DNA of 64,000 nt from Candidatus Kaiserbacteria bacterium. GTDB taxonomy: Bacteria; Patescibacteriota; Minisyncoccia; Phycocordibacterales; JABAAK01. The notes under the pieces were generated by a model that was not told where the DNA came from, did not search any database, and saw only the letters and a list, made by a program, of their open reading frames with translations. Shown piece by piece: positions 53,155 through 53,961 of the stretch (positions within the stretch are counted from its first letter, which is position 1; each line of letters begins with the position of its first letter). Position numbers and translations under genes: made by a program. The stretch covers positions 59,418 to 123,417 of the forward strand of contig JAPOOC010000007.1 of assembly GCA_026713605.1 (NCBI GenBank). Reading direction: 5' to 3'.

Positions 53155-53392
53155 ACAACCTCCATGGGATTACTCCCGCTGGTTCCTAAGACCAGTGCGT
53201 CTACCCGCGCCGGCAATCTCTGATTGACGCTGACTATCAGTCGCCGCCTGTGGCGGAATTGCTTGTGCCGAGGAGAGGGCTTGAACCTCCATGGGATTAC
53301 TCCCGCTGGTTCCTAAAACCAGTGCGTCTACCCGTGCCGGCAATCTCTGATTGACGCTGACTATCAGTCGCCACCTGTGGCGGAATTGCTTG
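53155..53392 (-). repeat. Two tandem ~126-bp units, each = 3' two-thirds of tRNA-Leu(UAG) fused to a palindrome-bearing spacer
   Basis: Units at 53155-53206(+spacer) and 53266-53332(+spacer) match the anticodon/variable/T-arm/3' acceptor of the adjacent full tRNA but lack the 5' acceptor and D-stem; 4 SNPs between units. Confidence 0.8.
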
Positions 53393-53477
53393 TGCCGAGG
53401 AGAGGACTTGAACCTCCATGGGATTACTCCCGCTGGTTCCTAAAACCAGTGCGTCTACCAATTCCGCCACCTCGGCA
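53393..53477 (-). tRNA. tRNA-Leu (anticodon UAG), long variable arm
   Basis: RC reads GCCGAGGTGGCGGAATTGGTAGACGC...CTGGT-TTTAGGA-ACCAG...GGAGGTTCAAGTCCTCT-CCTCGGC-A. Confidence 0.85.
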
Positions 53478-53479
53478 TG

Positions 53480-53552
53480 TCCGCCCGCTAGGACTCGAAC
53501 CTAGGACCCACCGGTTAAGAGCCGGTTGCTCTACCAACTGAGCTACGGGCGG
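53480..53552 (-). tRNA. tRNA-Lys (anticodon CUU)
   Basis: RC: CCGCCCG-TA-GCTC-AGTTGGTA-GAGC-A-ACCGG-CTCTTAA-CCGGT-GGGTC-CTAGG-TTCGAGT-CCTAG-CGGGCGG-A. Confidence 0.85.
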
Positions 53553-53630
53553 AGGGAATCTTTTTCATTCTTGTGAATGATGTCTCCAGTATGCCACAAA
53601 ACCAATGTAAAATTGCTATACTACACTATA

Positions 53631-53711
53631 GCCGGAGTGGCGGAACTGGTATACGCGCACGACTTAAAATCGTGTACCTCTGGTATGCGGGTTCGACTCC
53701 CGCCTCCGGCA
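53631..53711 (+). tRNA. tRNA-Leu (anticodon UAA), long variable arm
   Basis: GCCGGAG-TG-GCG-GAACTGGTATA-CGC-G-CACGA-CTTAAAA-TCGTG-variable-GCGGG-TTCGACT-CCCGC-CTCCGGC-A. Confidence 0.85.
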
Positions 53712-53961
53712 CTTGTTAGTTCCGCCACCCGTGGCGTCTAGTATTCTGCACCAATCAGAGATTGGTGGCACGGGTATACGCGCACGACTTAAAATCGTGT
53801 ACCTCTGGTATGCGGGTTCGACCCCCGCCTCCGGCACTTGTTAGTTCCGCCACCCGTGGCGTCTAGTATTCTGCACCAATCAGAGATTGGTGGCACGGGT
53901 ATACGCGCACGACTTAAAATCGTGTACCTCTGGTATGCGGGTTCGACTCCCGCCTTCGGCA
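53712..53961 (+). repeat. Two tandem ~120-bp units, each = conserved spacer + 3' two-thirds of tRNA-Leu(UAA)
   Basis: Spacer CTTGTTAGTTCCGCCACCCGTGGCGTCTAGTATTCTGCACCAATCAGAGATTGGTG then GCACGGGTATACGCGCACGACTTAAAATCGTG...CCTCCGGCA; second unit carries an acceptor SNP (CCTTCGGCA). Confidence 0.8.

Follow-up and report, generated by a model that had tools for sequence, protein, structure and literature searches.

Partial copies of tRNA genes are a standard marker of integrated mobile DNA, and the locus described here raises the question of what they signify where the marker is present without any element. The locus is located in a stretch of 64,000 nucleotides (hereafter the window) from a contig of a Candidatus Kaiserbacteria bacterium (JAPOOC010000007.1, positions 59,418 to 123,417), in which two tRNA-Leu genes, separated by a gene for tRNA-Lys, are each followed by an array of tandem units. 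A unit consists of a short spacer, here called S, and a partial copy of the tRNA gene that precedes it. The arrays represent a real, clade-wide and tRNA-Leu-specific repeat architecture, and they are most likely selfish or scar DNA rather than an RNA gene.

The three tRNA genes of the cluster were recognized by both ARAGORN and Rfam. The two functional tRNA-Leu genes are tRNA-Leu(UAG) on the minus strand (53393-53476, Rfam 57.8 bits, with C74 at 53392) and tRNA-Leu(UAA) on the plus strand (53631-53711, Rfam tRNA 61 bits, with C74 at 53712), while tRNA-Lys(CUU), on the minus strand between them (53479-53552), has no trailing units. When read in its own orientation, each tRNA-Leu gene is followed in turn by S, a partial copy, a second S and a second partial copy. 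Tandem Repeats Finder placed the UAG array at 53157-53459 (period 127, 2.4 copies, 97% matches, score 578) and the UAA array at 53648-53962 (period 125, 2.5 copies, 98% matches, score 616).

The UAA array contains two complete units of 125 bp on the plus strand. The first S (53713-53772, 60 nt, E = 1.3e-18 against a profile of S) is followed by a partial copy that extends from G18 to C74 (53773-53837, 65 nt, Rfam 26.2 bits) and differs from the gene by T60>C. The second S (53838-53897) is identical to the first, and the second partial copy (53898-53962, 65 nt, Rfam 26.5 bits) has one C>T substitution in the acceptor 3' strand and ends the array exactly at its C74. In the UAG array, on the minus strand, the first S (53333-53391, 59 nt, E = 2.5e-18) and the first partial copy (53265-53332, G18 to C74, 68 nt, T60>C, Rfam 25.2 bits) make up one complete unit of 127 bp. 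The second S (53206-53264) has two substitutions (GGCGGCG and GGCGCGG), and the second partial copy (53157-53205) is cut short in the T-loop, with T55 as its last base, and lies 7 nt away from the stop codon of a ClpC-like gene (50432-53149). An earlier note on this DNA, made from the sequence alone, had described two tandem units behind each gene, which is correct for UAA but not for UAG, where the distal unit is incomplete. It had also described the spacer as replacing the 5' acceptor strand and the D-stem; the spacer is 59-60 nt long, and the 3' strand of the D-stem and the 3' half of the D-loop are retained in the units. The near-identity that it reported for units of the same array was borne out, as these differ by one to five substitutions. 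The distal UAG copy has the ancestral C32, which is the state in the tRNA-Leu(UAG) genes of related genomes, while the gene and the proximal copy have T32. The distal copy thus looks older, which fits growth or homogenization of the array at its gene-proximal end.

The spacer S is non-coding, begins directly after C74 and contains two hairpins. It starts with about seven variable nucleotides, followed by an inverted copy, 8-13 nt in length, of the tRNA's own positions 7-20 (e.g. CAATTCCGCCAC). After a turn of 2-4 nt comes GTGGCG, which equals tRNA positions 7-12 and pairs with the inverted copy to form hairpin 1. The middle part, about 10 nt, is U-rich in the S of the UAA type and holds the palindrome GACTnnnAGTC in the S of the CUN type. 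The right part forms hairpin 2, G-C-N-N-CAATC / AGA / GATTG-N'-N'-G(G)C, and is followed by ACG. In the first S of the UAA array, hairpin 1 is CGCCAC-CC-GTGGCG (53723-53736), and hairpin 2 is GCACCAATC-AGA-GATTGGTG(G)C (53748-53769), preceded by the U-rich stretch and followed by ACG. The first S of the UAG array contains hairpin 1 at 53369-53382, the palindrome GACTGATAGTC, and hairpin 2 at 53336-53357. The spacers of the two arrays are 74% identical, in agreement with the homology proposed earlier, and the two palindromes first seen in them are also confirmed: CAATCAGAGATTG has four exact occurrences, all inside the spacers of the arrays, and six matches when up to two mismatches are allowed, a count that was reached in none of 100 shuffled sequences, while TTCCGCCACnnnTGGCG has four matches with at most one mismatch, likewise restricted to the arrays.

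Both ends of S are related to the tRNA that it follows. At the right end, GGCACGG matches tRNA positions 12-18 (GGAACTGG or GGAATTGG) except at 14 and 17 and, where the tRNA has T16, also at 16, which means that the homology fades out rather than ending sharply. At the left, the inverted D-arm copy tracks position 16 of the local tRNA, with an A in S where the tRNA has T16 (the UAG array of the window and, in the related loci presented below, CAG of L002 and UAG of L009) and a G elsewhere, where the tRNA has C16. The fourth pair of hairpin 2 varies between arrays and is C-G, U-A or A-U. In total, three pairs of this hairpin show two-sided compensatory change, and the covariation score is 0.201 as compared to 0.129 in shuffles (5 of 500 reach 0.201), which fits a structure that is recognized.

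To what extent this architecture extends beyond the window was examined in three ways. A pattern scan of species-representative genomes identified one further genome, the 696-kb chromosome of a Candidatus Paceibacterota bacterium (L001), a scan of metagenomes identified three genuine loci (L002 and L004 being the same sequence) and one chance match, and more relatives were gathered through homologs of ClpC and TyrRS. S with the same junctions is present behind tRNA-Leu in at least eight related Paceibacterota assemblies. It follows the genes for UAA (the window, L007, L008), UAG (the window, L007), CAG (L002), GAG (L001, L003, L017) and CAA (L016), so that all five tRNA-Leu isoacceptors carry S somewhere in the clade. 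The left junction is always located right after C74 and the right junction is always GGCACG|G18. The pairwise identity of S across isoacceptors is 70-92%, which is comparable to that of orthologous S between genomes. In all S arrays, the partial copy represents the local isoacceptor and the local allele, even where the variable-arm alleles of UAA differ, as between the window and L007/L008; the source of the copy is thus the target rather than an incoming S. A search of 311 kb of sequence from the window and its relatives with an nhmmer profile built on S detected 24 copies at E < 1e-4. Each of the 24 sits immediately on the 3' side of either a tRNA-Leu gene or a partial copy, which speaks against the generic dispersed repeat that the earlier note had named as a possible refutation. 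Full-text literature searches gave no description of such arrays in Patescibacteria.

The number of units per tRNA-Leu gene ranges from zero to three across the relatives. L007 and L017, which belong to one contig of 634 kb (ClpC 87%), have three identical units behind UAA, one behind UAG, one plus a truncated unit behind GAG and none behind CAA. L008 (ClpC 86%) has two units and a truncated one behind UAA, and its UAG gene, which lacks S, is followed only by a terminator hairpin homologous to hairpin 1. The UAA gene of L009 (ClpC 85%) has a decayed unit and its UAG gene a decayed S without a partial copy. No S was found at UAG, UAA or CAA in L015 (ClpC 91%), or at UAA in L013 (ClpC 74%). The CAA gene of L016 (ClpC 90%) is followed by S, a partial copy and then an S fused to another module, while the same gene has no S in six relatives. 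The CAG gene of L002/L004 has one unit and the first 16 nt of a second S. In the more distant L001 (TyrRS 74% identical to the L007 and L008 genomes) and L003, the GAG gene is followed by S and a partial copy, and both of these are heavily mutated at the GAG gene of L018 (TyrRS 89% to L001). The mutated spacers and partial copies in L009 and L018 argue against an essential function. The three loci in L007/L017 share an identical right part of S, 25 nt in length; this may be the ancestral state and was not used as evidence for homogenization.

None of the partial copies is a tRNA. The two UAA units (53754-53837 and 53879-53962) are called by ARAGORN as additional tRNA-Leu(UAA) genes with the anticodon at position 37. 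The Rfam scores of the units, 25.2-26.5 bits, are below the gathering threshold of 29 bits; the D-arm is missing and the acceptor stem contains mismatches. Unusual or D-armless tRNAs were considered and rejected, since the isoacceptors do not share the acceptor pairing that ARAGORN or cmscan proposes, as was also seen in a manual check. Annotation pipelines would therefore inflate the number of tRNA-Leu genes in these genomes and metagenome-assembled genomes, and the arrays explain such spurious extra calls. No promoter is conserved inside the units. A separate observation concerns the motif GGTATACT, which has 11 sites in the window (e.g. 17230, 31992, 48258, 56271, 58228 and 61128) as compared to 0.9 expected by chance. 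By eye, several of these sites are placed just upstream of the starts of open reading frames (ORFs), and similar GGTATA-type sequences precede tRNA genes in the relatives; the motif is probably the -10 promoter motif of the organism. The D-loop of tRNA-Leu(UAA) (GGTATACG) is one base off this motif, which resembles nothing else in the units.

Modules of a related kind were found behind other tRNA genes. In L008, tRNA-Trp is trailed by four units (9285-9806) that consist of a different spacer, W, and the last 32 nt of the gene itself, and a single such unit is present in L016 (5060-5262). The common junction of these units is GCAACGCCG|CCGTTTCAGG. In L007 (8643-8799), W is the unduplicated trailer of tRNA-Trp. 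The palindrome (G)CTGATAGTCAG(C) is common to W and the S of the CUN type. The non-coding core of a third module, X, is about 160 nt long and rich in hairpins. X is present in three tandem copies at tRNA-Tyr in L006 (8730-9353), at tRNA-Leu(GAG) in L001 (2023-2594), at tRNA-Tyr and tRNA-Leu(CAA) in L016 (3800-4017 and 8050-8275), and in L017 (~6380-6440). The cores at tRNA-Leu(GAG) in L001 and at tRNA-Tyr in L006 are 95.6% identical. In three of four loci (L001 and both in L016), X is followed by the last 14-15 nt of the local tRNA, and in L006 by a variant copy. The duplication of the X type starts at the border between the T-loop and the T-stem (positions 60/61). This is also the site of a recurrent substitution in the S arrays, as the T-loop change T60>C is present in the gene-proximal partial copy of three separate arrays (UAA in the window at 53822, UAG in the window at 53279, and CAG in L002 at ~3640). 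Searches of Rfam at E <= 1-5 with S and X gave tRNA matches only and no RNA family or ribozyme, and X and W had no Rfam match and no match in IMG/VR. A further repeat of about 250 nt with long internal inverted repeats, Y, follows the partial tRNA copy at both tRNA-Tyr and tRNA-Trp in L016 (3119-3799 and 5255-5760), in inverted orientation around the two. Y was not found in the window by BLAST, and the idea that it is homologous to the A/C-rich flank after the UAA array of the window had no BLAST support.

Variable defence islands are located just distal to the arrays in the window, in L001/L003 and in L018. The island in the window (54126-56129, 32-36% GC), between the UAA array and tRNA-Tyr, consists of two convergent genes, one for a D12-class N6-adenine methyltransferase (54126-55364, plus strand) and one for a protein of 261 amino acids without a Pfam match (55344-56129, minus strand), which is presumably a restriction enzyme. 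The islands in L001 and L003 encode an EcoO109I restriction-modification (RM) system, to which L003 adds CRISPR-Cas genes (clustered regularly interspaced short palindromic repeats), and the island in L018 encodes SNF2, HNH, GmrSD and an EcoRI-type methylase. The earlier note had taken the RM island in the window as support for mobile DNA. The association of arrays and defence islands holds in several genomes, but the repeats do not enclose the islands, and a distal tRNA fragment that would bound them was not found in the DNA examined. The palindrome GACTnnnAGTC in S has some resemblance to an operator for a C protein; the island has no C gene, and this reading was not adopted. The CRISPR array of L003 (6630-7621), which is beside Cas2/Cas1 and has the tRNA-Leu(GAG) array and the EcoO109I RM genes upstream of it, contains 16 repeats (~37 nt, ATCTACATTAGTAGAAATCTTATATACGGATTAAAC) and unusually short spacers of ~26 nt.

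The arrays are also found where the gene order has changed. The Leu-Lys-Leu cluster is located in the gap between ClpC and tRNA-Tyr in the window and beside tRNA-Cys in L007, L008, L009 and L015. In L009 the cluster has the opposite orientation to that in L007 and L015, and in L008 its genes are reshuffled. L006, the closest relative (ClpC 94%), has the tandem X array in the gap between ClpC and tRNA-Tyr instead of the cluster. Truncated partial copies are joined to islands or rearranged DNA at position 32 in L003, where the neighbour is the EcoO109I RM island, and at position 31 in L008. Further truncation joints are located after T55 in the window and, in L017, in the T-stem, where the copy is joined to a fragment of X. 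The breakpoints of the truncated partial copies fall in tRNA loops.

How, then, did the arrays arise? Our tentative reading, to which we give slightly less than an even chance, is that S is a miniature, non-autonomous module with specificity for tRNA-Leu, whose insertion duplicates the target, and that the arrays are resized by unequal recombination. That one S with fixed junctions is associated with five genes whose 3' two-thirds are non-homologous makes independent accidents unlikely. S, or the minimal surviving form of a module, would enter at the 3' end of tRNA-Leu in a site-specific event that duplicates the target from the D-loop to the 3' end. A likely target determinant is GTGGCGGAAYTGGYAKACGC at positions 7-26, which is common to all tRNA-Leu isoacceptors. 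Once a first unit was in place, unequal homologous recombination and gene conversion with the functional gene could add, remove and homogenize units, and single units that escaped homogenization would decay by point mutation. The partial copies may then act as pseudo-target or recombination sites at which islands and rearrangements join. There is no sign that the partial copies are needed, and the main consequence of the arrays appears to be structural.

Several observations weigh against this reading of S as an inserted module. Pfam domains of integrases, recombinases or transposases were found neither in the 51 ORFs of the window nor in the scanned ORFs of L001-L003, L007 and L016, and the Pfam tables of the other loci contain no recombinase beside any array, though the enzyme may be encoded elsewhere. 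The sole transposase-type match, an ORF with an rve_3 domain, is found in L015, at a distance of about 4.7 kb from a Leu cluster that has no arrays. S was seen neither in a free form nor with cargo, nor anywhere away from tRNA-Leu, and it is solely from its distribution that we infer that S is or formerly was mobile. That its target was duplicated on insertion, that an enzyme acted in trans, and that unequal crossover resized the arrays are likewise inferences. Terminal inverted repeats are lacking at the true ends of S (TTGTTAG... / ...GGTGGCACG), and its only inverted pair is internal and imperfect (GTGGCGnC / GnCGGCAC). A pair of filled and empty sites could not be established for S, as the array-free flanks in L015 do not align with the flanks in L007. 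A target duplication of 65-68 bp is unusual for transposases. Finally, the inverted D-arm copy that tracks the tRNA, as well as the covariation in hairpin 2, could reflect selection on RNA or DNA structure, or fold-back templating.

The earlier note suggested that the units are att-site duplications left by repeated integrase-mediated insertion and excision. According to this explanation, tyrosine-integrase elements carrying their own tRNA-Leu 3' segment inserted and later lost their cargo and integrase, such that fused attP arms, corresponding to S, were left between attL and attR. The order of full gene, insert and partial copy to the 3' end is the textbook att pattern (PMC9897764; PMC2853133), the end of S resembles the tRNA bases that it replaces, as the cores of attP and attB do, and defence islands adjoin several arrays. 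Moreover, the functional UAA gene and the decayed partial copy in L009 hold different variable-arm alleles, as expected if an element brought a new 3' part. What stands of the suggestion is that the units are duplications of the target tRNA at the DNA level, such as mobile DNA leaves at tRNA genes, patchy in their distribution and decaying in L009 and L018, and, as also recognized at the time, that they do not represent a single attL/attR pair. The part that assigns them to an integrase fares worse. None of about 11 arrays contains an integrase or cargo, and nothing besides the S of 59-60 nt is located between the full gene and the partial copy in any of them. S is collinear throughout and has no variable deletion joint, and therefore does not represent a mixture of remnants left by separate deletions. 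An element-borne tRNA poorly explains why one S follows five isoacceptors, or one X three tRNAs, with cognate copies in all S arrays and in all but one X locus. Described integrase crossover sites in tRNA genes are placed in the anticodon loop and the T-loop. Here, the boundary is instead placed in the D-loop (positions 17/18), which is absent from the integrase target regions in tRNA genes listed in PMC2853133. Furthermore, no attP-like copy was found in collections of viruses, phages or plasmids: searches of IMG/VR with S, the unit or X gave zero matches, and the units had no match to phage records and a tRNA-like match only to plasmids. Given also that no tRNA fragment bounding the islands was found in the DNA examined, we consider integrase scars an unlikely origin of the arrays.

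Another possibility is that no dedicated machinery was involved, and that template switching or fold-back synthesis at a structured and highly transcribed tRNA gene was followed by unequal crossover and gene conversion. S can indeed be read as a trailer of ~7 nt, inverted positions 7-20, a turn, and forward positions 7-12 (GTGGCG), which is the signature of a snap-back, and the sequence of the inverted copy varies with that of the local tRNA. In L008, the array behind tRNA-Trp is a plain tandem duplication of 3' part and trailer that ends with the trailer and has CGCCG microhomology; in L007, the same trailer is unduplicated. The breakpoints in tRNA loops are also in line with such a process. 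It does not explain why the same 30-nt segment with hairpin 2, the differences A14>C and U17>G and both junctions recur behind five isoacceptors with non-homologous 3' two-thirds. Likewise, a simple duplication of partial copy and S would end with S, while the S arrays usually end with a partial copy (the window, L007). This makes an origin without machinery improbable. We find similarly improbable a functional trailer RNA, the alternative raised in the earlier note, in which a transcript of S and the partial tRNA, made by read-through or as a unit of its own, would take part in processing or termination for tRNA-Leu or would act as its tRNA-like decoy or sponge. Such a role could account for the persistence of the units across a clade of genomes of 0.6-0.85 Mb, their orientation along with the gene, the compensatory changes in hairpin 2, and the 8-13 nt of complementarity to the 5' strand of the D-arm that track the tRNA; hairpin 1, moreover, precedes a U-rich tract in the S of the UAA type and forms a clear terminator behind UAG in L008. 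Yet close relatives lack the units (L015) or hold them in decayed form (L009, L018), their copy number is unconstrained, and as a whole they fold no better than shuffled sequence (z -0.9 to -2.7). They match no Rfam family beyond sub-threshold tRNA, they lack a conserved promoter, and without the 5' strand of the acceptor stem and the D-stem they cannot form the L-shape of a tRNA. An artefact of assembly through collapse or expansion of repeats, which the earlier note had listed as a possible refutation, is extremely improbable; in its favour is only the general risk that tandem repeats pose in metagenome assemblies. The units carry substitutions, and the same architecture, with varied copy number and sequence, is found in at least eight independent assemblies, including those from other samples.

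If, as we tentatively prefer, S was inserted as a module, it may have counterparts in W and X. The three could represent an undescribed class of miniature elements of Patescibacteria, in which a trans-acting enzyme would recognize the tRNA gene by its fold or its conserved sequence and insert a hairpin module of 60-200 nt at the 3' end, with duplication from an internal loop (the D-loop, the anticodon-stem region or the T-loop) to C74, and in which the resulting pseudo-tRNAs serve as landing pads that seed defence islands and cluster rearrangements. We regard this wider proposal as rather doubtful, though worth stating. A mobile S would rank with the smallest known units of site-specific insertion, and would hint at an unrecognized recombination activity in Patescibacteria, a group whose mobile DNA has been little mapped. 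The arrays mark hot spots for defence islands and for inversions and translocations of tRNA clusters even in the case that S is no more than a scar.

Three other regions of the window were noted in passing. A homolog of TraD/VirD4-like coupling proteins (DUF87, TrwB_AAD_bind) is encoded at 58448-61090, at a position that is conserved in L006, and the part of the gene for its C-terminal ~450 residues is extremely rich in A and of low complexity (AT skew 0.78 at 60001-61000). An ORF of 598 amino acids on the minus strand (25850-27646), without a Pfam match, coincides with a local GC peak of 62.5% (26001-27000), as compared to ~47% elsewhere. Two tandem RNase J paralogs are encoded on the minus strand at 11700-15416, the second of which has no detectable match to the metallo-beta-lactamase domain.

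Among known systems, CRISPR and neo-CRISPR arrays share with the S arrays the alternation of repeat and insert beside a fixed "leader", here tRNA positions 1-17. A link to CRISPR was rejected, in agreement with the earlier note, because the inserts all have the same sequence and the window has no cas genes; the 37-nt repeat in L003, with its Cas1/Cas2 and 16 repeats, is unrelated to S. Miniature inverted-repeat transposable elements (MITEs), repetitive extragenic palindromic sequences (REPs), bacterial interspersed mosaic elements (BIMEs) and palindrome-associated transposable elements (PATEs) are likewise short non-coding hairpin modules with compensatory changes and several copies per genome. 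Unlike these, S is never dispersed, it has neither terminal inverted repeats nor a short duplication, and no transposase was seen. The closest described pattern is that of integrase att scars (PMC9897764; PMC2853133), with which the arrays share a full tRNA gene, an insert and a direct repeat to the 3' end, as well as multiple repeats at one gene and islands nearby, while they differ in four features: the integrase, the cargo, the sublocation and attP. Fragments generated by att duplication are also mis-called as tRNA genes (PMC9897764).

Two further systems resemble the arrays in how the target is duplicated. Insertion with long target duplication has been described for RM genes in naturally competent bacteria (PMC2853133), and there, as here, a direct duplication of more than 30 bp flanks the insert without a mobility gene. 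RM islands are adjacent to the arrays, and the window encodes pilus or competence-type proteins. The insert is nevertheless of a different kind, since S is a conserved hairpin module of 60 nt rather than a set of RM genes, and recurs at one gene family with fixed junctions. At tRNA-Leu, casposons generate a target duplication of 14 bp, which is shared within the tandem arrays that they form (PMC4779613). S differs from them in that it has no terminal inverted repeats, that no Cas1-solo or PolB gene was seen, that the duplication is 65-68 bp, and that the insert is 60 nt of non-coding DNA. In casposons as in the S arrays, the duplication is derived from the target itself, the same site in tRNA-Leu is used repeatedly, and duplications and inserts alternate in arrays, and the 14-bp duplication of the casposons resembles the 14-15 nt duplicated by the X module.

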